A stretch of DNA of 43,898 nucleotides. Source: Deltaproteobacteria bacterium (GTDB lineage Bacteria; Myxococcota_A; UBA9160; UBA4427). The stretch is from NCBI GenBank assembly GCA_031400655.1, contig JANNQH010000088.1:1-43898 (forward strand), in the 5' to 3' direction. The notes under the pieces were generated by a model, which ran no database searches, was not told the origin of the DNA, and was given only the letters and a program-made list of their open reading frames with translations. The stretch's first letter is position 1; every line of letters begins with the position of its first letter. This document shows positions 15,724-29,561 of the stretch, piece after piece. Position numbers and translations under genes: made by a program.

Positions 15724-16320
15724 TCAGGACCGGGTTCGCGGCTGCGCGAGGGTCTCTTCGAGGCGCTCGAGCGCGCCGGCGACGCGCTCGAGATTTCGGT
15801 TCAAGCGATCGAGCTCCGCTCGCGACGGCCACTCGTTCGTTCGGAAGTCCGGGCGACTCCCGGCGCGCGGATCCATAGCGGGCGAAGCGGGCTCCTGCTG
15901 GGGTTCCTCGCGGCCACGCAGGTCCCAGGCGAAGCCGCGACCGCGGGCCATCGCCGTGTCACCGCCTCTGTCCCCACCTCTGTCCCCTCGATGGACGAGC
16001 TGGCGAAAGCGCTCCTGGAATTCGCCGAGGCCGTCGCTCGCCTCGTCGACGCTCTTGCGAATGGCGGAGTAGACCGCATCGCCACCGCGCGAGAGGATCT
16101 GGGTGAGCAGCGTGTCGGACGGCACTTCGCGGGCGCGCTTGTTGTCGACCAGGATCTGGGAGAGGGCCACCTGCGTGATGTCCTCGCCCGTCTCGTTGTC
16201 GACGACGCGCACCTCCTCGCCGCGGTCGAGTAGCTCGCCCACGCCCTTCAAGGTGATGTAGCGGCTGGTCTCGGTGTTGTAGAGCTTGCGATTCGCATAG
16301 CGTTTGATCAGGATGGCCAC
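15724..16320 (-). CDS. PhaR-like protein (PHB/PHA accumulation regulator N-terminal DNA-binding domain)
   Basis: N-terminus MAILIKRYANRKLYNTETSRYITLKGVGELL is the conserved PHA-regulator DNA-binding domain. The central region is low-complexity (GDRGGDRGGD) and the C-terminus is coiled-coil-like. Confidence 0.8.
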   Translation of the reverse strand: MAILIKRYANRKLYNTETSRYITLKGVGELLDRGEEVRVVDNETGEDITQVALSQILVDNKRAREVPSDTLLTQILSRGGDAVYSAIRKSVDEASDGLGEFQERFRQLVHRGDRGGDRGGDTAMARGRGFAWDLRGREEPQQEPASPAMDPRAGSRPDFRTNEWPSRAELDRLNRNLERVAGALERLEETLAQPRTRS

Positions 16321-16329
16321 CGGGCGAGT

Positions 16330-17535
16330 CTAGCGCCGCGACTCGCCGCCCGTCAGCTGGCTCGCGAGCTCGAGCAATCCTTCCAGTCGATCGAGGGGGG
16401 CCGATTGCTCCGCGACCCGCGCGCAGCCGATGCCGCTCGCGCGGGCTGCGTCCGCGAGCGCAGCGAATCGCTTTTCTTCGAGCAGACACGTTCGCGCGTG
16501 CTCGAGGATCGCGGCGGCGATCTCCTGCTCCGGGTGCACCGCAGCCTTCGCGTTCGGGTCCGGCTCGAGCGCGTCGGAGAGGATTCGCAGATCCGCGGCG
16601 AGTGCCTCCCCCTGGCAGCGTTCGAGCAGGTCCGCCGGCGACACGCGAACGGACCACGGCTGCATCCGGTTCACGATCAGCGAGACGAGCTGCGCCCCGA
16701 GCCCTCCGAAGCTGGCCACGATTTCCTGCGTGCTGCGCTCGGACCCGGCGAGGGCGCGGCACACGAGCACGAATCTCGTCTCGTCTCCAAATAACACGGC
16801 CTGGATGCGTCGGGCCCGATCCGAGAGGTCGGAAGACAGGCCATCGAGGGCACGCAGGAGCTCCGTCAGGTCCTCGAGGAAGCCGAGGCCCGCGATGCGT
16901 TCGAGCAGTCCGAGGGCGCGATGCAGCGGGCGCGCGAAGAGCCGCAGCGAGAGGCGGCTTGCCGACATCGCGGGCCGGACCAGGGCATGGAAGAAGCGGC
17001 TGTCGAGAAACGCTTGCAGGCGTGCGGGCGCGCGCAGGAAGTCGAGAGCGTGCTCGGCGGGCGGGGTGTCGACGACGATCAGGTCGTAGCGCAGCGTTTC
17101 GACGAGGGCCTGGACCTCGGCCATCGCGGCGTATTCGCTGCTGCCGGCGAGAGCCTGCGAGAGATGGCGGTAGATCCGGTTCTCGAGGATGCGCCGGCGG
17201 GCGGCCGGATCGGGCGTGAGGCGGTGGACCAGCTGATCGAAGGCTTGACGGGTCGAGAGCATCATGACTTCGAGAAAGGGATCCGGGGCGCCGGGCGTGC
17301 GCGCGGACCGGCAGGCGAGCGGGATGCGCGCCGGCTCATTGCCGAGGGTTTCGAGGCCGAAGGCGTTGGCGAGGCGGCGGGCGGGATCGATCGTGAGGAC
17401 GAGGGTGCGGCGACCGCTCCTCGCGGCTTCGACGGCGAGGGCGGCGGCGATCGTCGTCTTGCCGACGCCGCCGGTGCCGGCGCAGACGATCACGCGCGCT
17501 TCGTCGAGGGCGTTCCGGATCGGGTCCGTCGTCAC
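16330..17535 (-). CDS. ArsA/Get3-like P-loop ATPase, divergent copy
   Basis: GTG 17535 overlaps the upstream stop (GTGA). Walker A is CAGTGGVGKTT. The ArsA signature is degenerate (VVDTPPAEHALDFL instead of DxAPTGH). Confidence 0.85.
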   Translation of the reverse strand: MTTDPIRNALDEARVIVCAGTGGVGKTTIAAALAVEAARSGRRTLVLTIDPARRLANAFGLETLGNEPARIPLACRSARTPGAPDPFLEVMMLSTRQAFDQLVHRLTPDPAARRRILENRIYRHLSQALAGSSEYAAMAEVQALVETLRYDLIVVDTPPAEHALDFLRAPARLQAFLDSRFFHALVRPAMSASRLSLRLFARPLHRALGLLERIAGLGFLEDLTELLRALDGLSSDLSDRARRIQAVLFGDETRFVLVCRALAGSERSTQEIVASFGGLGAQLVSLIVNRMQPWSVRVSPADLLERCQGEALAADLRILSDALEPDPNAKAAVHPEQEIAAAILEHARTCLLEEKRFAALADAARASGIGCARVAEQSAPLDRLEGLLELASQLTGGESRR

Positions 17536-18533
17536 GCGGCACCCGCCCCTGGTCGACTCGAGTCGTCGTGTTCGGGCCAGACGGGATTCGCGAGCACGGC
17601 CTCTGCATGCTCGGTCCAGCCGCTGCCTGCCTCCCAGCCGTCGGTCAACAAGGGCAGATCGACGACCGGCAGCTCGCACAGCGCGGACGCGTCGCGCCGA
17701 AATCGGATCGCGGAAGCCTCGCGGCGCGCGCCGTGCTCGAGCATCGCGCGCATCTCGGCCTGGGAGGGCAGCGCCGTGAAGACCGGCTCACCGCGAAGCC
17801 GTTCGAGGGCGGCCAGCGCCGTCGCAGCCCGTTCGCTCGGCATCTGGTTCACGACGACGCGGTCGACTGCGATTCGGATCTCCCGGCGCGCGCGATCGAC
17901 GAGCTCGTGCGTCTCCTTGACGGGCAGCTCCTCGGGCAGCGTCACCGGCAAGAGCAGCGTGCGTTCGGGATCGTGAACGAGCGTTTCGACCCAGCCCGCG
18001 TGACGAGCGAGCGGACCCGTGCGCACCGCTTGCTGGACGACACGGGGTACGTCGAGAAAAGTGAGGCCGTGTCCGGTGGCGGGGGCGTCGACGACGATCA
18101 GATCGAAGCTCGGGCGACCGCCCGCGTCGGTCCGCTGCTCGAGGTGCCAGATCTTTCCGAGCACGATCAGCTCGCGCCAACCCGGCGCCGCCTCGAGCAG
18201 CTGTCCGAAGGTGTCCGTGCGCAGGACCCGATCGGTCACCAGGCCGAGGCCGGTCTGGAGCCGCACGTATTCCGCGAGCGCTTCGTGGGGATCGATGCGC
18301 AGGGCGTGGAGGCCCGGCGCGAGCGAGCGCCCGGCGTGCCCGAGCGGCCGGGGACCCCGTTCGAAGCAAGCCGCGATCGCCTCCTGGGCGGCGGTTTCCA
18401 CCAGCAGGACTCGCTTTCCCGCGCGGCGTGCGGCCTCGGCCACGGCGCAGGCCACTGCGGTCTTACCGACGCCTCCTTTGCCGGTGACGACGATCAGGCG
18501 TCGTTCGAGCAGGCCGCGCGGGCTCGGATTCAC
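17532..18533 (-). CDS. ArsA/Get3-like P-loop ATPase, canonical copy
   Basis: Walker A VTGKGGVGKTA and ArsA signature VVDAPATGHGLTFL. The start is assigned to GTG 18533 (VNPSPRGLLERRLIVVTG), the only start codon near the P-loop. The rest of the 523-aa track ORF upstream looks non-coding. Confidence 0.8.
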   Translation of the reverse strand: MNPSPRGLLERRLIVVTGKGGVGKTAVACAVAEAARRAGKRVLLVETAAQEAIAACFERGPRPLGHAGRSLAPGLHALRIDPHEALAEYVRLQTGLGLVTDRVLRTDTFGQLLEAAPGWRELIVLGKIWHLEQRTDAGGRPSFDLIVVDAPATGHGLTFLDVPRVVQQAVRTGPLARHAGWVETLVHDPERTLLLPVTLPEELPVKETHELVDRARREIRIAVDRVVVNQMPSERAATALAALERLRGEPVFTALPSQAEMRAMLEHGARREASAIRFRRDASALCELPVVDLPLLTDGWEAGSGWTEHAEAVLANPVWPEHDDSSRPGAGAA

Positions 18534-18779
18534 GCGCCGACTCGGCGGGCGGCTGGGCCGTCGCGGTAGTGAAAACCCTTCGTCATATGCGGCGAGTCTA
18601 GCCGTGCAGTGCGATTCGCCCGAGTGCAGCGGGGCGGGGCCGGGCGGGGAGGTCGGCGGACGCGGCTCAAGCCCTGCCCGGTGGGGGCCGAAGAAGCCGA
18701 ACAGCAAAGTGTTTGTTGCGCGGTCCCGGGCGGAGAGCGATCCGCCACGGGCAGTCGCGCGCGGAGCGGGGAACGCGAC

Positions 18780-20174
18780 TTGATCGTGACTTGCCAGGAA
18801 TGTTCGACGAGCTTCCAGCTCGACGATGCGCGAATTCCGGCAGCGGGTGCGCGCGTGCGTTGCTCCCGCTGCAAACACGCCTTCTACCTGCCGAATCCGT
18901 CCGCGAGCCAGTCCCAGGCAATCCAGGCCGTCGTCGACGAGGCGATCCAGGGCAAGCTGGCGCGCTCGCCCGACGCGGCACACGACCTCACGAGTGCAAA
19001 CGGCGCCGATCCCGAGGAAGACGACTGGCAATTCTCGCAAGAGATCCGGGTCGCCGGCGACGAGCCCGACGAAGGCGAGCGCGCACGGGCCTCCTCGCCA
19101 CATCCCGATTCCTTTGATCTGACCGGTGATTTCGGCCGCGGCTTCGACCCGGACACGCTCTCCCGGGCAGAGCCCGCGAAGCCGCTCCCGACGGCGACCG
19201 CCGCAGCCGCAACGTCAACGCGCCCGAAGGCCACGGCGATACCGGCCCCCGCTGCAGCCGCTGCCACACCTGTGAAAGCGCCGGCCTCCGAGCCGAGGGG
19301 CGAGGAGTCGAGCTTCGGCTCGATTGATGATTTCTCCGCTCTGATCGATGACGAAGATGTCTCGATCGACCTGGCTACGGAGCCCGTGCCGGAGGCGCGT
19401 CGACACGCGCCTCGTTTCGAACCGCTGGCGGCCGCGCCCGCAGTGACCGGAGCTTCGGATGATCTCGGCGACCCGGAGAGCTGGGACATCGTTGGCGGTG
19501 ATGGCGCGCGGCAGGCGAAATCGGCGGTCGCAGCACTCGTCCGGCCGCCGGCGGTCGCAGCGAAAACGAAGAAGGTTGCCGACAAGACGCCCCTCGATCT
19601 CTTCGCCGACACGGATCTGCCGCCCATCCGCGACGACCAGGACGAATCCCCGGCCACCTATCAACGATTCGTGGGGGTCGGAAAGCTCGTCGGCTGGTGT
19701 GTCACGGCATTGAGCATCGCCGTTGTCGGGAACAGCCTGATGCGCCCTGAGTGGTCCCGCTGGCCCGTGGCGCGGCAGCGGGTCGAGATCGGACCGTTCA
19801 TCGCCGAGACGACTCGCACGGGTTGGCTCGAAACGAGCCGCGCGGGATTCCTGCTCGTCGTCGAAGGGGAGCTCCGCAACACCGGGAGCCAACCGGTCGC
19901 CCCGGTCCCCATCCAGCTCGCGCTGCTCGATCGATCCGGTGAGCGACTCGCGGCCCCGCCGATTCGCGCCGGTCAGCCGTTCGCGGAGCTCGCGCTCCGG
20001 GAATCGCGACCCGAAGAGCTCTCGACCCAGGTCCATCAGTCCATCTCGGGCTGGCTCGCGACGCCGCTTGCGCCCGGCGAGGTCCGCCGCTTCACGGCGA
20101 TCTCGCGCGCGGATGAGCTGCCGGAGGCCGCGCACCGCATGCTGCTCGAGGCGGGGCAACCCGCGAAGCCCTAG
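18780..20174 (+). CDS. MJ0042-type zinc-ribbon / DUF3426-like membrane protein
   Basis: TTG start gives (M)IVTCQECSTSFQLDD...RVRCSRCKHAFYLP, a CxxC...CxxC zinc ribbon. This is followed by a long acidic/Ala-Pro-rich disordered region, one TM segment (LVGWCVTALSIAVVG) and a C-terminal beta-rich domain like DUF3426. The start codon is uncertain. Confidence 0.75.
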   Translation: MIVTCQECSTSFQLDDARIPAAGARVRCSRCKHAFYLPNPSASQSQAIQAVVDEAIQGKLARSPDAAHDLTSANGADPEEDDWQFSQEIRVAGDEPDEGERARASSPHPDSFDLTGDFGRGFDPDTLSRAEPAKPLPTATAAAATSTRPKATAIPAPAAAAATPVKAPASEPRGEESSFGSIDDFSALIDDEDVSIDLATEPVPEARRHAPRFEPLAAAPAVTGASDDLGDPESWDIVGGDGARQAKSAVAALVRPPAVAAKTKKVADKTPLDLFADTDLPPIRDDQDESPATYQRFVGVGKLVGWCVTALSIAVVGNSLMRPEWSRWPVARQRVEIGPFIAETTRTGWLETSRAGFLLVVEGELRNTGSQPVAPVPIQLALLDRSGERLAAPPIRAGQPFAELALRESRPEELSTQVHQSISGWLATPLAPGEVRRFTAISRADELPEAAHRMLLEAGQPAKP

Positions 20175-21935: not shown

Positions 21936-22751
21936 ATGCGGTCGGGTTTCGCGGGGTTCGAGGACGGGCTGCGACTCCTTTTCGAAGGGGCTCGATTCCT
22001 TCGCCGGGAGCCGTCGCTCTGGCCGCTCGCGATCGTGCCGGTGTTTCTCTCGCTCGTTTTCGTGGCGATCGCAGGCTCGCTGTTCTTCGCCAATCTTTCA
22101 GCGATCGCCGCCTGGTGCAATTCCCTCCTGCCCGTGCTCGTGGCGACGACCTGGTGGAGCTGGCTTTGGGTCGGTCCGGCGATGTTCATCGTCTGGATTG
22201 CGGGCGGGCTCGCGGTGGTCGTCGTGTTCGGCGCAGCGATCGTGGCGTCGCTGCTCGCGGCGAATCTCGTCAGTGCCCCGTTTCTCGAGCGGCTCTCCTG
22301 GCGGGTCGAGCGGATCGAGCGGGCGGGTCAGGTCGACGACGCGGAGGAGGGTTCGAATGCCGTCGGCGCCGCGCTTCGCAGCTTTCTGGCGGAGCTCCAG
22401 CGCATCGGTTTTCTCGTGCTCGTCTGGACCGGGCTCTCGCTGGCCGGTCTCGTCGTGCCCGGGGCGCATCTGCTGACCGCGCCGCTGCTCGTGATCGTGA
22501 CGATCCTCTTCCTGCCCCTCGAGTACGCGGGTCACGCCTTCGATCGGCGCGGGGCATCGTTCCGCGATCGTCTGCGATTCGTGCGCGCGAACCTGTGGAC
22601 GATGACGGGCTTTGGCAGTGTGGCTTTCGTCGCCTGCTTCCTGCCGGGACTCAATCTGCTGATGATGCCGGCCCTCGTCACGGCCGGGACGCTGCTCGTC
22701 GTGCGGCGCGATCCCGTGGCGGACGGCATGAGCGATTTATCGTCGTTCTAG
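21936..22751 (+). CDS. EI24/CysZ-family integral membrane protein
   Basis: Start ATG 21936 (MRSGFAGFEDGLRLLFEGARFL), a typical CysZ/EI24 N-terminus, followed by several TM segments. The assignment is from recalled family resemblance. Confidence 0.65.
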   Translation: MRSGFAGFEDGLRLLFEGARFLRREPSLWPLAIVPVFLSLVFVAIAGSLFFANLSAIAAWCNSLLPVLVATTWWSWLWVGPAMFIVWIAGGLAVVVVFGAAIVASLLAANLVSAPFLERLSWRVERIERAGQVDDAEEGSNAVGAALRSFLAELQRIGFLVLVWTGLSLAGLVVPGAHLLTAPLLVIVTILFLPLEYAGHAFDRRGASFRDRLRFVRANLWTMTGFGSVAFVACFLPGLNLLMMPALVTAGTLLVVRRDPVADGMSDLSSF

Positions 22752-23509
22752 AAGCCGAGATGTGAGGCGAGGAAGGGCCGGGCGGCAGCCGGCCAGTCGC
22801 TCGTGCGTCGGTCGAAATAAACCGTCAGGACCGCGGCTCTTTCGCCCGAGCGAGTACCGTTTGAAACAGAGTCGGCATTCGGGAAGGGCGGAGGCGTCTG
22901 GCGTTTGTCGCCCGGCGCACGCGCGAGCACCGCCGCCCCGATCCGCTCTTCTTGCTGCACGAGTGACGAACCCAGGCGGGCACCCAACCCGAAACCAAGG
23001 AAGCCGACCCGCTTCGCGTCGACCTCGTCGAGCTGCAGTACGGCATCGAGGGTACGAATGAGATCTGCGATTGCCTGACGCAGAAACTCGTCGACGAGGA
23101 CCTGGCTATTCCGGTCGACAGAATCTCCCCGTTCGATGGCCAGTGTCGATTCGATCAGTCGCTCGCTCAATTTGGGACTCGCGCGATGCCCGTGGAGAGG
23201 CAGATCGATTACGGCGACCGTCAGCCCGTCGGCCACCCAACTCGCGATTGGGCCGAAGTCGGTCGATGCGGCGGAGGCACCGGCTTCGTGGGCAAGCAGG
23301 AGAAGGGCCGGGAGTCTGTCGCGCTGACTCGCCGTGGGAGCAACGGATCGTGCCAGAACTCCATTCACGATGTCCCCGCGCGACACGAGCTCGATCCGAT
23401 CGGCTCGAACAGCGTGCCACACGCCGGCGCCCTCGAGAGGTCGCAGCGTGGCGCGCGCGGGCGTCTCCACGTGATCGGAAAGAAATGCGGCACGGGTCAT
23501 CGTGCGCAC
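22748..23509 (-). CDS. Alpha/beta-hydrolase (dienelactone-hydrolase-like) fold protein, apparently lacking the nucleophile
   Basis: 253 aa with LLLAHEAG...VIDLPLHGHR and a nucleophile-elbow-like RVGFLGFGLGARLG, where Gly occupies the Ser/Cys position. Confidence 0.5.
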   Translation of the reverse strand: MRTMTRAAFLSDHVETPARATLRPLEGAGVWHAVRADRIELVSRGDIVNGVLARSVAPTASQRDRLPALLLLAHEAGASAASTDFGPIASWVADGLTVAVIDLPLHGHRASPKLSERLIESTLAIERGDSVDRNSQVLVDEFLRQAIADLIRTLDAVLQLDEVDAKRVGFLGFGLGARLGSSLVQQEERIGAAVLARAPGDKRQTPPPFPNADSVSNGTRSGERAAVLTVYFDRRTSDWPAAARPFLASHLGF

Positions 23510-23579
23510 GGTAGCAGCCGGAGACCGCGGGCCGGAAGCACCTTCAGCGAGTCGGGAGCCCTCTGCGAGTCAAGAGCCC

Positions 23580-24248
23580 TCAGCGTGTGAGAAGCAGCTT
23601 GCGCGTCCGGTAGAGATTCGATTTCACCGAGTCCTCGGACTTCGAGAGCGTCCGCGCGATCTCGGCGATCGGAATCGAATCGAGGTGGTGAAGCTCGAAG
23701 ACCGTCCGCTGCTCGTCGCTGATCTCGGTCTCGAGCGTTCGGCAGATCTGAGAGGCTCGTTCGTGGAATTCGTAGTTTTCGAGCGGGGTTGCTTCGGGTT
23801 GGCCGGCGGCCGTCAAGCTCCCGACCGCGCGCTCCTCGTCCTCTTCCAGGAGGGGCACGACCGGATGGCGCTTGCGCCGGAATCGCGCCGCGAGGGTTCG
23901 GCGTGTCAGGCCGAAGATCCAGGCTGCGAAAGGCGCTTCACCGCGGTATCCGTCGAGCGACGAGAAGACGTTGATGAAGACTTCCTGGGTCGTCTCTTCC
24001 GTGTCCCAGCGATTGCGCAGGCGCTTGTCGAGGAACGCGTACACCCGCTTGAAATAACGCTGGTAGAGCTCGTCGAAGGCCGCCCGCTCACCGGCTCGCA
24101 CTCGATCCACGAGCGCTTCGTCCGGCAGGATGTCCGGCGTATGAGCGGTCTCTGCGGTAATCGCGCTGGCGAGCGTCCGCGCGCCTACAGCGCGGGCTGC
24201 TGCCTCGCTGAGTCCATGCACGGTCGTTCTGGAGTCGTGAAAATTCAC
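23580..24248 (-). CDS. ECF-type RNA polymerase sigma-70 family factor
   Basis: Region 2 (FDELYQRYFKRVYAFLDKRLRNRWDTEETTQEVFINVF) and region 4 (SDEQRTVFELHHLDSIPIAEIARTLSKSEDSVKSNLYRTRKLL). I prefer the GTG at 24248 preceded by AAGGA. The track ATG at 24449 would add 67 poorly coding-looking residues. Confidence 0.85.
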   Translation of the reverse strand: MNFHDSRTTVHGLSEAAARAVGARTLASAITAETAHTPDILPDEALVDRVRAGERAAFDELYQRYFKRVYAFLDKRLRNRWDTEETTQEVFINVFSSLDGYRGEAPFAAWIFGLTRRTLAARFRRKRHPVVPLLEEDEERAVGSLTAAGQPEATPLENYEFHERASQICRTLETEISDEQRTVFELHHLDSIPIAEIARTLSKSEDSVKSNLYRTRKLLLTR

Positions 24249-24513
24249 AAGCCGAATCCTTCGAGTCCAAGCGTCCTCGACTATTAACCAGACCCAGAGC
24301 CCGGTCCCGTACGTCACTCGCGCCACGAGGCCACGTGGGACGACACGGGTCCAGACCTCTCCAGATCGCCCAGGTCGATCCAGAGAACCCCCCGGATGGG
24401 AAGTAGCCGCGAGCCAGGCGGAGGTGGCAAGAAATGTCACCTGTGCCAAAAATCGTCATCGCGCGGGGTCGGGCCCCGAGGGCGGTAGCCTGTTCGCCAG
24501 GGCATTGGGCGGA

Positions 24514-25281
24514 CTATTGGCCGGGGAATAGGTCGGGGTCCGGCGCGGTCGGGCGGCGGGGCGCCGTGTCGACATCTGGCTGGAACTCGAGATCCGTGTC
24601 GACGAGGCCGGTGCGAAAGGCGGAGGGACTCGGTGGGGCGATGAAAGGGCGCGCGCGCTCCAGACGTTCGAGTCGTTCGGAGCGGCGCGCAGGTTCGGCG
24701 GCGACGGCGGGCAGGATGGCGGGACCCGAGGCGTTGCCGTCGCGACGCGCGCCAGGGGGATGGCGATCCGGGCGCGTGATCGGCTGTGTGATCGGCTGTG
24801 TGGCCGGCTGCGCGGGTCGCTGATCCAGAGGCTCGATCAGGAGCCTCGATTGGCCGTGGCTGTGAAGGCCGCGACTGCGCCAGAGCTGCACCGTCTCGGC
24901 GGGGAAATTGTCTGCGGCCGCGCGCGCCTCCGGGCCGAAGTCTCGGCAGACGAGCAGCACCCGGGGCTCGGCCGACGGCTCGATCCCGAGCCCGGTCGCG
25001 AGCTTCAGGAAATCGGTGCGTCGCGGCCGCAACCACGAAAGGTCGGCGAGCGAGCGCGTCAGGGCCGCCGCGTCGTCGTCGGCCTCGGCGAACCGGATCG
25101 CAACGAGCTCGCCATTGCCCCCGACGGCGAGCAGGTCGATGGTCGAGCTCTCGGCGAGAAATCCCTCGGCGATGACGTGCAGCTCGGGCAACAGGCTGCG
25201 CAGCGCGTGGTGCAGGGCGTGCCGAAGGCTCGGCCGATCCGGGAATCCCTCGAGCGCTCGCGCTGTCGCTCGTTCAGCCAA
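24514..25281 (-). CDS. Hypothetical protein with a NucS/DUF91-like PD-(D/E)xK fold (catalytic E and K not conserved) and a Pro-rich disordered C-terminal tail
   Basis: STIDLLAVGGNGELVAIRFAEADDDAAALTRSLADLSWL ... RVLLVCRDFGPEARAAADNF resembles the NucS C-terminal nuclease core, but the ExK position reads RFA. The TTG start at 25281 is preceded by AGGAG at 8 nt and overlaps the upstream stop. Confidence 0.55.
   Translation of the reverse strand: MAERATARALEGFPDRPSLRHALHHALRSLLPELHVIAEGFLAESSTIDLLAVGGNGELVAIRFAEADDDAAALTRSLADLSWLRPRRTDFLKLATGLGIEPSAEPRVLLVCRDFGPEARAAADNFPAETVQLWRSRGLHSHGQSRLLIEPLDQRPAQPATQPITQPITRPDRHPPGARRDGNASGPAILPAVAAEPARRSERLERLERARPFIAPPSPSAFRTGLVDTDLEFQPDVDTAPRRPTAPDPDLFPGQ
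24777..24812 (-). repeat. 12-nt tandem repeat (two perfect copies and one degenerate copy) inside the CDS
   Basis: tgatcggctgtg tgatcggctgtg tggccggctgcg. It encodes QPATQPITQPIT in the tail of the 24514..25281 protein. Confidence 0.8.
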
Positions 25282-26134
25282 GGACCCGGCTCCTGGCGTC
25301 CTCGTAGAGCAGCCGCGCCACGTCACGGAGCGCACGGCTGGCGGGCGCCTGGGGATGGGCGAGGCCGATCGGCCGTCCAGCGGCGATCGCGCGGTAGACG
25401 TCGAGGTCGTCGACCAGGAGCCCGTAGCTCATGAGCGGAATGCCGAGCCGCTCTTCACAGCTCCGCGCGAGCTCGTCGAAGGCGGCGCGCGCATCGGCGA
25501 TGTGGCGGACGCCGTGCAGCGTGACGCCGATGTCGAGGCCGGGCTGTCTGTCGACGAGCTGCTTCACCCGCTCGAAGCTGGCCGCCGTGTCCTGGCGCCG
25601 AGGTGACGTGAACAGCAAGAGCCAGCGGATCGGATCCATCGACTCGCCCGCATCGGCGAGCCAGGCGGGCGGAATGCGCGTGAACACGATGCCGCCCCGG
25701 CGCGCCGTCTTGCTCCGCTCTTCAGCGAGTCCGGCGGCGGCCCGTCGAAGCTCGATCAGATTGCCCGCCGGGCAGTAGACGACCTCGCTGCCGAAGTCGC
25801 CCGGTCCCTCGGCGGGCCAGAGCGGGGTGTCGCGATCGGAGTCCGGCGCGAGGATCACGCTCGCCCCGCCGTGACGGGCAGTCTCGATTGCGAGGTTCCA
25901 GGTTAAGGCGGCGTGGACCACGTCGCGCTCGCCGATCGGGACCCCGAGCACCGAGAGCGGAAGCCGACTCGTCCCGGGACGTCCCGCCAACGTGCGGCGC
26001 GCGGGCGGCGGTGAAATCGCGAAGGGCGTCGCCGGGCGCCCGCGCAGCTCGCGATCGGCTTCCCGACGCGACTCCGGCGCGCCGTCGAGCTCGGGCAGGA
26101 AATAGTGCAGGACATCGGACAGATCGCGCGGCAC
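25274..26134 (-). CDS. ParA/MinD-fold paralogue with a degenerate Walker A (predicted non-catalytic)
   Basis: LSVLGVPIGERDVVHAALTWNLAIETARHGGASVILAPD aligns by eye to the xxGKGGxGKTT...LxxxGxxVLLxDxD region, but both lysines are absent. The C-terminus (LMSYGLLVDDLDVYRAIAAGRPIGLAHPQAPASRALRDVARLL) is typical of MinD/ParA/FlhG. The start is uncertain: GTG 26134 is chosen, while ATG 26281 would overlap parA by 79 nt. Confidence 0.55.
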   Translation of the reverse strand: MPRDLSDVLHYFLPELDGAPESRREADRELRGRPATPFAISPPPARRTLAGRPGTSRLPLSVLGVPIGERDVVHAALTWNLAIETARHGGASVILAPDSDRDTPLWPAEGPGDFGSEVVYCPAGNLIELRRAAAGLAEERSKTARRGGIVFTRIPPAWLADAGESMDPIRWLLLFTSPRRQDTAASFERVKQLVDRQPGLDIGVTLHGVRHIADARAAFDELARSCEERLGIPLMSYGLLVDDLDVYRAIAAGRPIGLAHPQAPASRALRDVARLLYEDARSRVLG

Positions 26135-26202
26135 GGCAGCTCTCGAGACCGCAGGGCCTCTCCAGTTTGAAGGTTCGAGGCGATCTCCGGCTCGCGGGGG
26201 CC

Positions 26203-27297
26203 TCAGCGCACGTGAAGGATCGAATTGGGCTGGCCGGTCGGCCCCGGCGCCGACTGGGGATTCGCCGGATCTTCCCGCCATTCCCCGTCGACGACATAAC
26301 GATACTGATAGGTTCCGGGCTCGAGCGTGAGCACCTTCGTCCAGACCCGGGTCTGCCCCTCGGAGGCGATCAGCGACCGCACGCCACGGTCGGGCACCCA
26401 GCCGTTGAAATCGCCCGCGATCCGCACGTCCCCCGCCGATGAGTCCTTGAAGCGCACCACGACCTCGCGCGGGGCGCCCGGTGCGGCGGCCTGTTCCTTT
26501 CTCTCCACTCCGGTCGAATGGAAGACTTCGGGGGGCGACGCCGACAGCTCCATTGCCACCGAGGCGTAGTCGAGGGCACCGATCGCGGTCGGCGCATAGC
26601 GCGAGATCGGGACACCGGCCTTCGCCGCCTCACGCAGCTTCACGTTCAGGCGCACGACGGAGTCGAAACAAAGTTCCTTGAACAGCTCCCGAATCTCTCC
26701 CAAGGTCGTACGCGCATAGCGCGTACGACCGTCATAAAGAGTCGGCAGGATGCGAACGTGGAGTCTGTGTCCGATCCGATCGGCGAGCAGGCTGATCGTC
26801 TCGAGCAGCTTCTGAACGCCGTCGATCGCGAAGAAGCTGGTTTCGAGCGGGATGATGACCTCGCCCGCCGCGCGCAGGGCGTTGAACGTGAGCAGCCCCA
26901 CGTTCGGCGGGCAATCGATCAGGACGAAATCGTAGAGCGGCGGCAGGCCGTCGAGGGCGGCCGCGAGGCGTTCCGTGCGCGCGTCGTGGCGCTCGCTCGC
27001 GAGCTTCTGCTCGAGCGCCGAGAGCACGATGCTCGAGGGCGCAAGGTCGATCGATTCGCTGACGTCGATGATGATCGAGTCCAGGCGACCGGCGCCCGCC
27101 GGCTCGACCAGCACCTCGTAGAGGTTGGCTTCCAGATCGTCGGGCTCGAGGCCCATTGCGAGCGTCGCGTGGGCCTGGGGATCCATGTCGACGATCAGGA
27201 CGCGATGGCCCTCGGCTGCGAGCGCGCCGGCGAGATTCACCGTCGTCGTCGTCTTACCGCAGCCGCCCTTTTGATTCACGATCGCGATGACACGCAT
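26203..27297 (-). CDS. ParA/Soj-family ATPase fused to a C-terminal CBM48 (AMPK-beta glycogen-binding) domain
   Basis: N-terminus MRVIAIVNQKGGCGKTTTTVNLAGALAAEGHRVLIVDMDPQ has the deviant Walker A. The C-terminus VVRFKDSSAGDVRIAGDFNGWVPD...LEPGTYQYRYVVDGEWREDPANP...NSILHV has the GDFNxW / YxYxxxVDGxW / DP signature of CBM48. Confidence 0.9.
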   Translation of the reverse strand: MRVIAIVNQKGGCGKTTTTVNLAGALAAEGHRVLIVDMDPQAHATLAMGLEPDDLEANLYEVLVEPAGAGRLDSIIIDVSESIDLAPSSIVLSALEQKLASERHDARTERLAAALDGLPPLYDFVLIDCPPNVGLLTFNALRAAGEVIIPLETSFFAIDGVQKLLETISLLADRIGHRLHVRILPTLYDGRTRYARTTLGEIRELFKELCFDSVVRLNVKLREAAKAGVPISRYAPTAIGALDYASVAMELSASPPEVFHSTGVERKEQAAAPGAPREVVVRFKDSSAGDVRIAGDFNGWVPDRGVRSLIASEGQTRVWTKVLTLEPGTYQYRYVVDGEWREDPANPQSAPGPTGQPNSILHVR

Positions 27298-27401
27298 GAC
27301 GTCCCCCCCCGAGGCGTTCCGACCGCGACTCGGGTCGCGGGCGTGTGATCTTCTGACGCTTTTCGATCTGTTCGCACTTCGCGCGGGCCGAGCGTCTCCG
27401 C

Positions 27402-28079
27402 TCAGCCGGTTTCGCTCCAGCGTTTCTGGCTCTGCTTGGCATTTCTGACCGAGGGCTTCGCAGGCCGCGCCGCCGGCTCAGGTGAGCGCTCGACGGCCTG
27501 CACCGGTGCGCGCCGATCGGGGCGTCGACTGCGTCCCCCGCGCGCGCCCTGACGTGGCTGTGTGCGAGCCTCGTGACGAGATTGAGCGTCGGCCTCCTGA
27601 CGCGAACGGAAATCCCACACTTCACGCTGGAAGGCGGCCACCGGAAATACCCATTCCTGGCCGGTGATCGCCTCGAAGACGGTCTCGTCGTGAAAGACGA
27701 GCACGACATCCCCGGTCGCCACGAGCACCAGCTCTGAAAGCGGTCGCCCCACCTGCGGCAGCAGCTCGCGCAGGGCGCCGACACTCTTTCGGATCTTCTG
27801 GACCGAAACGCCGGCGTCGATCAGGCGGCGCGTGGCCTTCAGGGCGACGAGATCGTTGAAGTCGTAGCGGTGGTGGCCACCGGGCGTGCGGGCGGACGGC
27901 TCGACCAGCCCGGTCTTGGCCCAGTACTGGAGCTGTCGGCGCGAGAGGTCGAGCAGGTCGACGACCTCGCTCGTCTTGAAATGGGCACTGACGGAAGCTG
28001 CCGCTCTGCGGGCCTCGCTCGTCTCGGAGGCCAGGACGGCGGCGGTGGACTCGATCTCGGTTGCGTGCGTCGTCGTCAT
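27402..28079 (-). CDS. MerR-family transcriptional regulator with a basic C-terminal tail
   Basis: Internal ATG 28079. The HTH region is FKTSEVVDLLDLSRRQLQYWAKTGLVEPSARTPGGHHRYDFNDLVALKATRRLIDAGVSVQKIR. The C-terminus is Arg/Lys/Pro-rich. Confidence 0.85.
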   Translation of the reverse strand: MTTTHATEIESTAAVLASETSEARRAAASVSAHFKTSEVVDLLDLSRRQLQYWAKTGLVEPSARTPGGHHRYDFNDLVALKATRRLIDAGVSVQKIRKSVGALRELLPQVGRPLSELVLVATGDVVLVFHDETVFEAITGQEWVFPVAAFQREVWDFRSRQEADAQSRHEARTQPRQGARGGRSRRPDRRAPVQAVERSPEPAARPAKPSVRNAKQSQKRWSETG

Positions 28080-28424
28080 CCGGATCTTTCTCGTTCCTGT
28101 CACCCCTGGCGGGTGTCGTGCCACGCGTCCTTCATGCGGGTCCACACGGACGCCCGCAGTCACGGCTGCGGGCCTGCGCAGAACGCAGGGCAACGAACAT
28201 CGGGGGCGGCGATCTCACCGGGCTGCAGCGGGGTCTGCTGATCAAATCGACCCGGTAGAACAGAGTAAAAGTGGCGGGCCGGTTCAAGTCAAGCCAAAAC
28301 TCGAAGGAAATGTCGCGATGGGTGGGAAAAGAACGAGATCTCGCGGGCAGCTTCGGCCGCCCGGCCTGCCGCCCGAGCGAACGGGGCGCGTGTCGCAACC
28401 CGAGCAAGGCTGGTAAGGTCGGGC

Positions 28425-29561
28425 ATGTTGGCCACACCGGATTCCAGGACCAGTCTCGAGCAATCGCCTCGCGAAGCGACCGAGGAGCCAAGCGCAGACG
28501 CGCTCGTTCCCCGCGGGTCCCTGTCTCGATTCGAGGGACGCGACACGGCTCCGGCCGCCCCGGCCACCCCGGAGCCCGGTGGTTCGCCGGCCGCGCCGCC
28601 GGCCGACCCCCCGGTTCGAGCTCTCCCGCTCGTGGCGGTCGACGATCGCATCGATGTCGTCGGCAAGGACGGCCGCTGGCCTTTCAATCAGGGCCGCCTG
28701 CTCCAATCGCTCTACCCGACCGGGCTCGAGGCGGACCAGGCCCTCGAGGTCGTCGTTGCGATCGAGCGCAGTCTGCGCCAACGCAACGCTCGTGAGGTCA
28801 CGCGGGACCTGCTGCGGGCGCTCGTGCATGAAATGCTCGAGCGGGATTTCGGATCCGAGTACGCGGGGCGCTACCGGGTCTGGCGGGCTTTCCAGAATCA
28901 GGATGTGAAGCCGTTGATCCTGCTGCTCGGCGGGACGAGCGGGGTCGGAAAATCGTCGCTCGCGATCGAGGTGGCGCGCCGGTTGTCGATCGCCCGCGTG
29001 CTCTCGACGGACGCGATCCGGGACGTGATGCGCGTGATGATCTCGGACGACCTCGTACCGACGCTGCACGTTTCGTCGTTCGAGGCCCACCAGAGGCTCG
29101 TCACCGCCGTGGCGCCCGGCCTCGATCCAATCATCGAGGGATTCCTCGACCAGTCGCGCACGGTGGCTGTCGGGGTTCGGGCCGTGATCGAGCGCGCGAT
29201 CATCGAGGGCACCAACACGGTGATCGACGGCGTGAGCCTGGTTCCCGGCCTCTACGAGCTCGCGGGCTGGCGCGACCGGGCGCACGTCGTGCTGCTGCTT
29301 GCCGCCGATCAGGACCTCGAGAGCCTGCGCGCGCATATCGTGGCCCGGGCCCACGGGCGCGGCGCACGCGCTTCCGAGCGCTATCTGGGCAGCTTCGAGA
29401 AGATCGTGCGGATCCAGGAAGTGTTGCTCGAGCGCGCGACGGCGTTCGGCGTCGAGGTGATCGACGTGCAGGATCTCGAGGATGCGGTGCGCCACGTCGT
29501 CTCCCACGTCGTCGGGGGGCTGGCGGCGACCCACGAAGCGCAGGGGACGGGACTCGATTAG
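28425..29561 (+). CDS. ATP-cone domain fused to a 2-phosphoglycerate-kinase-like P-loop kinase
   Basis: ATP-cone-like IDVVGKDGRWPFNQGRLLQSL...VTRDLLRALVHEML, then P-loop LLLGGTSGVGKSSLA and LSTDAIRDVMR. The roughly 60-aa N-terminal disordered region has lower third-position GC, so the start is uncertain. Confidence 0.7.
   Translation: MLATPDSRTSLEQSPREATEEPSADALVPRGSLSRFEGRDTAPAAPATPEPGGSPAAPPADPPVRALPLVAVDDRIDVVGKDGRWPFNQGRLLQSLYPTGLEADQALEVVVAIERSLRQRNAREVTRDLLRALVHEMLERDFGSEYAGRYRVWRAFQNQDVKPLILLLGGTSGVGKSSLAIEVARRLSIARVLSTDAIRDVMRVMISDDLVPTLHVSSFEAHQRLVTAVAPGLDPIIEGFLDQSRTVAVGVRAVIERAIIEGTNTVIDGVSLVPGLYELAGWRDRAHVVLLLAADQDLESLRAHIVARAHGRGARASERYLGSFEKIVRIQEVLLERATAFGVEVIDVQDLEDAVRHVVSHVVGGLAATHEAQGTGLD

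Follow-up and report, generated by a model that had tools for sequence, protein, structure and literature searches.

The 43,898-nt contig JANNQH010000088.1 of a Deltaproteobacteria bacterium (assembly GCA_031400655.1), analyzed over its whole length and referred to here as the window, carries four co-directional open reading frames (ORFs) on its minus strand at positions 24514-28079. They encode, in this order, a MerR-type helix-turn-helix (HTH) protein, a ParA ATPase with a C-terminal CBM48 domain (ParA-CBM48) and two partner proteins that we call p3 and p4. We found that ParA-CBM48 belongs to a large family recurring across phyla, that p3 is a pseudo-ATPase opening with a conserved ParB-like peptide and that genes for alpha-glucan enzymes repeatedly flank the family outside the lineage of the window. 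The family probably organizes glycogen stores in the cell. The more specific reading that we favor, in which an ATP-switched system of the ParA type links granules of alpha-glucan (glycogen) to the nucleoid and thereby spaces or partitions them, has in our judgment about an even chance of being correct. All sequences compared were metagenome-assembled genomes (MAGs) or metagenomes.

The parA-CBM48 gene (26203-27297, minus strand) lies behind a G-rich Shine-Dalgarno sequence. Its product had been described, in a sequence-only reading of this stretch, as a genuine ParA ATPase with a CBM48 domain, and profile searches and residue conservation agree on both domains. The deviant Walker A (NQKGGCGKTT), Walker A' (VDMDPQ) and Walker B (LIDCPP) motifs are intact and are invariant in 63 orthologues and across phyla. 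Among solved structures, the chromosomal ParA of Myxococcus xanthus is nearest to it (8ray, E=1.6e-44), ahead of Soj of Helicobacter pylori and Thermus thermophilus; the ATPase also matches the CBP_BcsQ and cellulose_yhjQ models. At the positions that contact DNA in Soj (R189 and R218) and in M. xanthus ParA, where R238 touches DNA (PMC12462528), the alignment shows a conserved YDGRTRYAR stretch and an invariant Lys, in NVKLRE, as the R238 equivalent. Judging from these residues, the protein would bind non-specific DNA. The CBM48 domain scores 43.3 bits against AMPK1_CBM (PF16561) versus a Pfam cutoff of 26.8 and aligns with the carbohydrate-binding modules (CBMs) of AMPK beta1/beta2 (E=5e-8) and with SEX4 and LSF1, at E values of up to 1e-5. 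The sugar-contact Trp/Trp/Asn of AMPK beta are retained in FNGW, DGEW and NS, which are invariant in the 63 orthologues and in ten sequences of several phyla; equivalents of AMPK beta1 W100, W133 and N150 are thus conserved, and that of K126 is Arg or Lys. Because the sugar-binding residues are intact and the gene is linked to glycogen enzymes elsewhere in the family, as detailed below, we infer that the domain binds and holds glycogen or a related alpha-glucan.

The Walker A motif of the protein contains a Cys (KGGCGKT) at parA codon 13 (window positions 27259-27261), where the usual residue is Val. All ParA-CBM48 proteins but one share it across phyla, which makes it a family signature, and it could render the P-loop redox-sensitive. 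The linker between ATPase and CBM48 ranges from 25 to >300 residues. In a Leptospirillia protein of 682 amino acids (aa; L070:8001-10049), ~300 residues of acidic repeats (EAADE(E/D)DE(A/V)PL) separate the two domains, which suggests a long flexible tether. An ordinary Soj identity of the ATPase was considered and rejected, because neither the window nor any of the fetched loci contains a ParB-type gene and the fusion proteins form a family of their own.

For p3, the longest ORF (25274-26281, ATG at 26281) overlaps parA, but the 120 listed homologues (~286 aa) cover its last 85% only. We therefore placed the start at the GTG at 26134, so that the protein begins with MPRDLSDV. The compact unit proposed earlier stands, with the correction that parA and p3 are separated by 68 nt rather than overlapping. 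Neither Pfam nor NCBIfam contained a match to p3, while a profile built from 53 homologues matched MinD, FleN and FlhG among PDB sequences at E ~1e-3. With the AlphaFold2 (AF2) model (predicted local distance difference test score 80.5, residues 1-54 disordered), a Foldseek search of the PDB returned FlhG (4rz2, E=1e-11), then FleN, MinD and Soj. At the position of the Walker A motif GKGGVGKT, p3 reads PIGERDVV; the Walker B Asp is gone as well (VFTRIPP), and the P-loop is also degenerate in all distant p3-like proteins. Since Walker A is replaced and the Walker B Asp lost, we assign p3 as a pseudo-ATPase of the MinD/FlhG branch. The structure search thus upholds the earlier view of a ParA/MinD fold without Walker A lysines and refines it, the protein being nearer to MinD, FlhG and FleN than to ParA.

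The first 16 residues of p3, MPRDL[AS]DV[LF]H[YF]FLPE[LV], are essentially invariant in the 53 homologues and are followed by a variable, disordered linker. ParB proteins share the general consensus LG(R/K)GL. In distant p3 homologues, the peptide reads LGRGLEDVSHLFLS, of the form (K/R)LGRGLE(D/E)VSHLFLS, with N-termini such as KKLGRGLEEVSHLFLSS, RLGRGLEEVSHLFLSS, KKLGRGIEEISHYFLSS, KLGRSLDDVADLWLSS, SRDRLAEISHHFLSG and similar. Agreement with the consensus is one of two grounds on which we liken the peptide to ParB; the other is residue register, as M1-x-R3-x-L5-x-x-V8-L9 of p3 falls in the register of the M. xanthus ParB motif L11-x-R13-x-L15-x-x-L18-I19 (PMC12462528). On the side of the ATPase, alignment to 8ray places Q, V, L, F, L and I at the six positions of the ParB-peptide pocket, five of the six being hydrophobic. 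The peptide is predicted to bind ParA and to activate its ATPase. Searches with the peptide alone (a 30-aa peptide and a 20-sequence profile against the PDB, and tblastn against plasmids) retrieved no ParB, the queries being short and crystallized ParBs mostly tail-less.

The second partner, p4, starts at a TTG preceded by AGGAG inside the end of p3, and the two genes overlap by 8 nt (TTGGCTGA), as had been read from the letters. Its AF2 model shows one globular alpha-beta-beta-beta-alpha-beta domain (~140 aa) followed by ~100 disordered Pro-rich residues. The structural matches are PD-(D/E)xK nucleases, led by NucS (2vld, E=5e-4) and EndoMS (5gke, E=7e-4), with SduA, Card1, SfsA and Can2 next. 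No match to p4 was found in Pfam or NCBIfam; 55 members run against Pfam at E=10 gave noise only and no NucS, and a p4 profile found nothing relevant among PDB sequences. The first catalytic position retains its Asp (D49 in IDLLAVG), whereas R63 and A65 stand at those of (D/E)xK. Among the 55 lineage members, 53 have D49/R63/(A, G or S)65 as their triad, and no relative has Lys at the third position. An inactivated NucS-like fold with a Pro-rich tail had been proposed for p4; structure search and loss of the triad bear this out, and a Pfam match to NucS does not exist even at E=10.

After its Pro-rich disordered linker, p4 carries a conserved C-terminal motif, PPSPSAFRTGLxDxDL, of which F222, R223, L226, D230 and L231 are invariant in the 55 homologues. 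It appears as FRTGQ..EEEEAFF in L070, and other p4-like proteins have acidic (T/S)(D/E)EE(L/I)xxF endings. One p3-like protein (L072:2057-3010) itself ends in a p4-type motif, FRSGI..LEEVLEF, and no p4 gene follows it, so the probable binding partner of the motif is a third component and not p3. For both partners, the sequence-only reading had the folds right and missed the short elements, namely the ParB-type peptide on p3 and the C-terminal motif on p4. In a soil group of relatives (L081-L093, L100, L105 and L121), the p4 domains keep an acidic D...DxD/E triad, BamHI-like and without Lys, and unlike p4 of the window these might bind metal or cut DNA.

To place the module beyond its own lineage, ParA-CBM48 was searched against 1.84 billion cluster representatives. 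The search returned dozens of full-length matches at 36-47% identity, plus proteins of 400-700 aa with a long ATPase-CBM linker. Named members come from Planctomycetota, Candidatus (Ca.) Glassbacteria, Leptospirillia and Nitrospirota MAGs. Eleven distinct non-lineage contexts were fetched, then 80 further metagenome loci. In all eleven contexts, a 240-340-aa protein without Pfam match directly follows parA-CBM48 (one gene was uncalled and one start mis-set), and in six a 185-205-aa protein, likewise without Pfam match, comes next. Single-sequence hhalign of the distant downstream genes was ambiguous for two of them. Profile-profile comparison settled the matter, identifying the downstream genes as homologues of p3 (99.0% probability, E=7.7e-18, 253 columns) and p4 (98.7% probability, E=2.3e-16, 144 columns). 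The order parA-CBM48/p3(/p4) occurs in Ca. Glassbacteria, Leptospirillia, Planctomycetota-like and other MAGs, and the neighborhoods of these non-lineage modules are otherwise unrelated (uvrC, polA, clpB, glnA and others). Orthologues of the MerR-type gene precede parA-CBM48 throughout the lineage, in the Leptospirillia MAG L070 and in several metagenome loci. The candidate module of the earlier description thus recurs across phyla, as one architecture within a large family rather than a one-off; of its four genes, those for the MerR-type protein and p4 are frequent yet not universal members.

The partner peptide is strikingly modular. An LGRGLE(D/E)VSHLFLS-type peptide opens the ORF straight after parA-CBM48 in 38 of 87 non-lineage loci, and its carriers vary from a pseudo-MinD to a p4-type domain without p3 (soil group L081-L093 and others) and to small unrelated proteins. 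In one organism, a single 496-aa protein (L153:3801-5288) unites the peptide, the pseudo-MinD and a p4-type domain (p3 hidden Markov model (HMM) E=2e-16; p4 HMM domain E=6e-5). By Rosetta-stone reasoning, this fusion is evidence that the two partners function jointly.

Alpha-glucan enzyme genes (GH57, glycogen synthase, GlgB and phosphorylase) flank 20 of 91 non-lineage loci, a count that overstates the number of independent events because many of the loci represent one clade; at least five arrangements are independent. Among loci of at least 8 kb, the count is 12 of 43; the enzyme genes were verified with Pfam. In L074, genes for a GH57 protein, a DUF4912 protein and a GH57 branching enzyme lie 18 nt downstream of p4. 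In L146, a GT5 synthase, a GH57 protein and a 1441-aa glycogen-synthase/phosphorylase fusion are encoded directly upstream of parA-CBM48. A free-standing CBM48 protein, a GT5 synthase and a branching enzyme accompany the module in L075, a divergent GlgB in L091 and a GH57-DUF3536 protein in L126. About 15 loci of one clade share the order GH57 gene, gene for a ~190-aa single-pass membrane protein, parA-CBM48. Since ParA-CBM48 is repeatedly linked to GH57, GT5, GlgB and phosphorylase genes, the idea of a polyglucan cargo gains independent support. Downstream of parA-CBM48, the GH57 clade (L106, L112, L115, L117, L119, L124, L136 and relatives) encodes either a multi-pass membrane protein of 107 aa or a Lys-rich, H1-like protein that includes a small beta-barrel domain, and the LGRGL peptide was absent from this clade.

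Within the lineage, a scan with the p3 profile, using one genome per species, yielded 67 loci, all in uncultured MAGs labeled Myxococcota/Deltaproteobacteria, some of them evidently mislabeled. By tblastn of the window proteins, one gene order prevails almost everywhere: rlmN, trmB and a divergent 2-phosphoglycerate-kinase-like gene, then the genes for the MerR-type protein, ParA-CBM48, p3, p4, an extracytoplasmic function (ECF) sigma factor and a hydrolase-like protein, then cysZ. The trio earlier singled out as a unit, ParA-CBM48/p3/p4, is syntenic across the 67 genomes, and the module is single-copy and fixed in a housekeeping position. This arrangement is far beyond chance; taken alone, synteny within the lineage says little on function, since the flanking housekeeping genes are equally syntenic. 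Identity to the window proteins is 64-95% for the ParA ATPase domain, 39-65% for p3 and 29-59% for p4. Median distances of 107 nt between the MerR-type gene and parA, 20 nt between parA and p3, -8 nt between p3 and p4 (62 loci, with the overlap conserved) and 242 nt between p4 and the ECF sigma factor gene define parA-p3-p4 as a tight, translationally coupled unit with the MerR-type gene just upstream.

In the mechanism that we propose, the Soj-like ATPase would dimerize on binding ATP and then bind DNA non-specifically, as its intact catalytic motifs and conserved basic DNA-contact residues lead us to expect, and the two flexibly tethered C-terminal CBM48 domains of the dimer would grip glycogen. 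The role of ATPase-activating partner would fall to p3, with its MinD/FlhG-fold body, unable to bind ATP, acting as a scaffold. A second partner role is suggested for p4, which is coupled to p3 translationally, fused to it in one organism and itself the bearer of the peptide in loci without p3; its probable function is to anchor the activator on DNA or on the granule. The MerR-type protein would regulate the operon. Two geometries are conceivable: a transient tether, with granules riding the chromosome, or a ratchet with p3 and p4 on the granule. All binding events, ATPase activation and any positioning of granules enter this scheme as predictions. A broader version, namely a widespread and hitherto unrecognized branch of the ParA/MinD family dedicated to glycogen granules, in which the ATPase would grip the polysaccharide through CBM48 while cycling on the nucleoid and a ParB-type peptide would be grafted on interchangeable partners, we advance tentatively, at slightly less than an even chance.

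Several observations count against granule coupling. About half of the family loci have no recognizable p3, p4 or peptide and encode a small membrane or Lys-rich protein downstream instead. No alpha-glucan enzyme gene lies within 8 kb in any of the 67 lineage loci. CBM48-like folds can serve protein contacts too. The lineage peptide, MPRDL..., is a degenerate form of LGRGL, and one residue of the pocket is polar (V116 to Q). Finally, known diffusion-ratchet systems have their activator on the cargo, and a domain for cargo binding on the ATPase itself departs from that pattern.

Alternatively, the module may be an assembly or regulatory factor for alpha-glucan metabolism, either BcsQ-like or an AMPK-beta-like glycogen sensor, that recruits or switches glycogen enzymes or reports carbon stores through the MerR-type protein and the ECF sigma factor. 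Such a role would account for the matches of the ATPase to CBP_BcsQ and cellulose_yhjQ, for the linkage of ParA-CBM48 to synthases and branching enzymes, for the MerR-type regulator recurring with the module and for the ECF sigma factor that follows it in all lineage loci; in addition, FleN, a structural neighbor of p3, is a transcriptional anti-activator. We nevertheless consider it unlikely, as the ATPase is nearest to chromosomal Soj/ParA and keeps both the basic DNA-contact residues and the ParB-peptide pocket, features that, combined with the ParB-type peptide of its partner, typify ParA cycles on the nucleoid. The ECF sigma factor gene, moreover, is 240 nt off and does not accompany the module outside the lineage.

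A slightly poorer case can be made for an orphan Soj-like ParA that positions the chromosome, the division site or a protein complex in the manner of PomXYZ or MipZ. In such a system, p3, p4 and the MerR-type protein would form a DNA-bound or scaffold complex, and CBM48 would park the ATPase on polar glycogen or bind a protein. The dcw cell-division cluster only 10 kb away, the presence of two partners as in PomXYZ, the DNA-enzyme fold of p4, the ability of MerR-type HTH proteins to anchor chromosomes (the RacA match) and the lack of glycogen genes near the module in the lineage are all compatible with it. Against this, the residues with which CBM48 would contact sugar do not vary across phyla, an argument for glycan binding as the selected function. 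Several independent arrangements, moreover, link the module to alpha-glucan enzymes, and the proximity to dcw is not seen in other phyla. A mobile or anti-phage defense cassette, comprising a ParA-like NTPase and a nuclease-fold effector under HTH control, is very unlikely: the structural neighbors of p4 include Shedu SduA, Card1 and Can2, its soil relatives keep the acidic D..DxD/E triad and PADLOC gave weak matches (mad1 to the HTH protein, PDC-S11 to p4, E=0.004), but those matches are generic HTH and P-loop hits, the catalytic residues of p4 are lost in the lineage, ParA is very highly conserved, and the module, single-copy, keeps its fixed housekeeping position in 67 genomes, its composition being flat and mobility genes absent.

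Compared with known systems, the granule-coupling module that we propose would be a machine of familiar type; new would be its presumptive cargo, the placement of a CBM on the ATPase, the use of a pseudo-ATPase as activator and a ParB-like peptide that is portable. With ParABS, as exemplified by M. xanthus ParA (8RAY, PMC12462528), the ATPase shares the deviant Walker A motif, the catalytic Asp, basic DNA-contact residues and most of the hydrophobic pocket. The differences are that here no ParB (a CTPase/HTH clamp) and no parS are present, that the ATPase has a CBM48 domain and a family-specific Walker A Cys, and that the peptide sits on a pseudo-MinD or a PD-(D/E)xK domain. McdAB, PomXYZ, ParC/ParP and PpfA/TlpT likewise combine a ParA-type ATPase with adaptors or activators that use a short terminal peptide and act on non-DNA cytoplasmic cargo, and PomXYZ also has two partners. 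In those systems, however, the partner recognizes the cargo, whereas here the ATPase has the presumptive cargo-binding domain, and McdB, PomX/PomY and ParP show no homology with p3 or p4.

The individual parts also have counterparts. FlhG, FleN and MinD are the best structural matches of p3 (4rz2 at E=1e-11, 5jvf and 1hyq). The N-terminal helix of FlhG activates the FlhF GTPase, and p3 resembles FlhG in joining a MinD fold to an N-terminal peptide that is predicted to activate another NTPase; p3 differs from all three in that its Walker A and B motifs are destroyed, its peptide is ParB-like and no membrane-targeting helix is evident. MinD carries a C-terminal membrane-targeting helix, a surface-binding appendage on a dimerizing ATPase, and by analogy ATP-dependent dimerization could raise the avidity of CBM48 for its surface. 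In contrast to that helix, CBM48 is a folded domain for carbohydrate binding that is attached through a linker, and it would bind a polyglucan surface instead of a membrane. Unlike in AMPK beta, SEX4 and LSF1, the CBM here resides on a P-loop ATPase and not on a kinase scaffold or phosphatase. The top structural matches of p4 are to the C-terminal PD-(D/E)xK domain of NucS/EndoMS, and NucS ends in a short partner-binding peptide. However, p4 lacks the N-terminal DNA-binding domain, has Arg and Ala/Gly in place of the catalytic Glu and Lys and ends in a tail unlike clamp-binding motifs. For storage granules, PhaM of Ralstonia eutropha tethers the polyhydroxybutyrate (PHB) granule to the nucleoid and is not an ATPase system. 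The proposed logic is the same, with storage granules inherited through attachment to the chromosome, and there is no homology; a further likeness is the Lys-rich, H1-like protein encoded downstream in some family members (L117 and L119).

The known cargoes and sites of dedicated ParA/MinD systems are chromosomes, plasmids, carboxysomes, chemoreceptor arrays, flagella and the division site, and to our knowledge the placement and inheritance of glycogen granules in bacteria are essentially uncharted. In the literature, we found no description of a ParA with CBM48 or of ParA-type handling of glycogen granules. If correct, the proposal would add a polysaccharide store to the ParA/MinD cargo list, as the first ParA system for a carbohydrate store, and would introduce a new design with cargo binding on the ATPase, as well as the first system with a pseudo-ATPase of the same superfamily as activator. 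The modular ParB-like peptide offers a sequence handle for finding further ParA partners. Because the family is present in many uncultured phyla, it may be a common element of how bacteria store carbon. Direct tests of the system are feasible, as its parts are small and soluble and the predictions sharp. Coordinates of the features are collected in Table 1.

Table 1. Features assigned within the window, with positions on the contig and the evidence for each.
Feature	Position	Strand	Evidence
ParA (Soj-like) ATPase domain, aa 1-255	26533..27297	-	AAA_31 E=3e-51; CbiA E=1e-21
CBM48/AMPK-beta-type glycogen-binding domain, aa 281-363 of the ParA protein	26209..26457	-	AMPK1_CBM E=4e-11
p3 N-terminal peptide MPRDLSDVLHYFLPEL, predicted ParA-binding and ATPase-activating motif	26087..26134	-	conservation; ParB register
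MinD/FlhG-fold pseudo-ATPase domain of p3, aa 58-286 plus stop codon	25274..25963	-	profile; AF2 model; structure search
Whole p4 gene, 255 aa	24514..25281	-	TTG start; AGGAG Shine-Dalgarno 8 nt upstream; 8-nt overlap with p3 stop
PD-(D/E)xK NucS-like globular domain of p4, aa 10-152	24826..25254	-	AF2 model; structure search
Conserved C-terminal short motif of p4 (PPSPSAFRTGLVDTDL)	24589..24633	-	alignment of 55 homologues
MerR-type HTH protein, 225 aa	27402..28079	-	Pfam MerR_1 (PF13411) E=1.8e-14; ATG at 28079
Putative sigma-70-type promoter	28264..28292	-	TTGACT 28292-28287, 17-nt spacer, TTTACT 28269-28264; conserved by alignment
Hairpin in the MerR-parA spacer	27323..27341	-	CCGCGAC-CCGA-GTCGCGG; compensatory changes between loci

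Direct reading of the DNA reproduced the four minus-strand genes, their coordinates and the 104-nt gap downstream of the MerR-type gene that had been reported from the sequence alone. The G+C content at third codon positions was of the coding type in all four ORFs (0.78-0.83) versus 0.59-0.62 in overlapping alternative frames. The locus had been taken as chromosomal because its composition resembles the flanks and because no ParB, replication or integrase genes are nearby. Both observations hold: G+C is ~69% throughout the window and flat (range 0.64-0.72), housekeeping genes surround the module, and Pfam/NCBIfam annotation of the 43.9-kb window revealed no ParB, replication, integrase or transposase genes.

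The MerR-type protein continues beyond its HTH domain with a conserved, atypical beta-rich segment (LSELVLVATGDVVLVF..GQEWVF) and a basic, variable tail at the C-terminus. Its matches among PDB sequences (GlnR, CvkR/Alr3614, CarH and RacA) are confined to the HTH domain, and no solved regulator among them resembles it further. Upstream, the TTGACT/TTTACT block is kept in the lineage loci and is followed by a partly conserved leader of ~185 nt up to the MerR ATG; from its conservation, it would be the operon promoter. A consensus promoter scan found no promoter, the -10 hexamer of the block being without A at position 2. The spacer of this alignment-derived candidate is 17 nt versus the 19-20 bp typical of MerR-operator promoters, and autoregulation by the MerR-type protein is likewise a tentative assignment. 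In the MerR-parA spacer of exactly 104 nt (27298-27401), the stem letters of the hairpin vary between related genomes with complementarity kept (5/5 stem pairs with double changes, 19 sequences). The 25-nt leader after it, with a G-run Shine-Dalgarno sequence, is nearly invariant (TCGGAACGCCTCGGGGGGGGACGTC-ATG). The hairpin may be an RNA element of the 5' untranslated region or an attenuator. In a terminator scan of the locus, terminator-like sites were no commoner than in shuffled sequence.

Downstream of the module, at 22748-24449 on the minus strand, lie the ECF sigma factor gene and a gene for a protein with faint esterase-like similarity and no Pfam match. No anti-sigma factor was evident beside the sigma factor. 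Every lineage locus has both genes after the module, a median of 45 nt apart. We considered them as further module parts and rejected this, as their conservation is limited to the lineage, they stand ~240 nt off and they are absent from the module in other phyla; the ECF sigma factor probably forms a separate transcription unit. The alpha/beta-hydrolase neighbors of the window and of L074 were also compared and are not of the same family.

The dcw cluster of the window comprises mraZ-rsmH-ftsI-murE-mraY-murD-ftsW-murB. The remaining genes encode an HDAC-like protein, PhaR, two BagA/BagB-like ArsA-type ATPases, TatA, a phosphomannomutase/phosphoglucomutase (PMM/PGM)-type mutase, CysZ, the 2-phosphoglycerate-kinase-like protein, TrmB, RlmN, a LysM/SLT lytic transglycosylase, Ffh and HisI/HisG. 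The mutase, 2.6 kb past the hydrolase-like gene, is the nearest alpha-glucan candidate in the window. At 15724-19103 (minus strand), the gene for the PhaR-type PHB-granule regulator is followed by two tandem genes for ArsA/Get3-fold ATPases, whose best matches are mycobacterial BagB and BagA, both under the curated cutoffs; they constitute another P-loop pair adjoining a storage-granule regulator. The divergent neighbor of the module (28425-29561, plus strand) encodes a P-loop kinase that resembles 2-phosphoglycerate kinase and has an ATP-cone at its N-terminus (NCBIfam PRK04220, E=3e-76, below cutoff), a member of a family known mainly from archaea and unusual in this setting.

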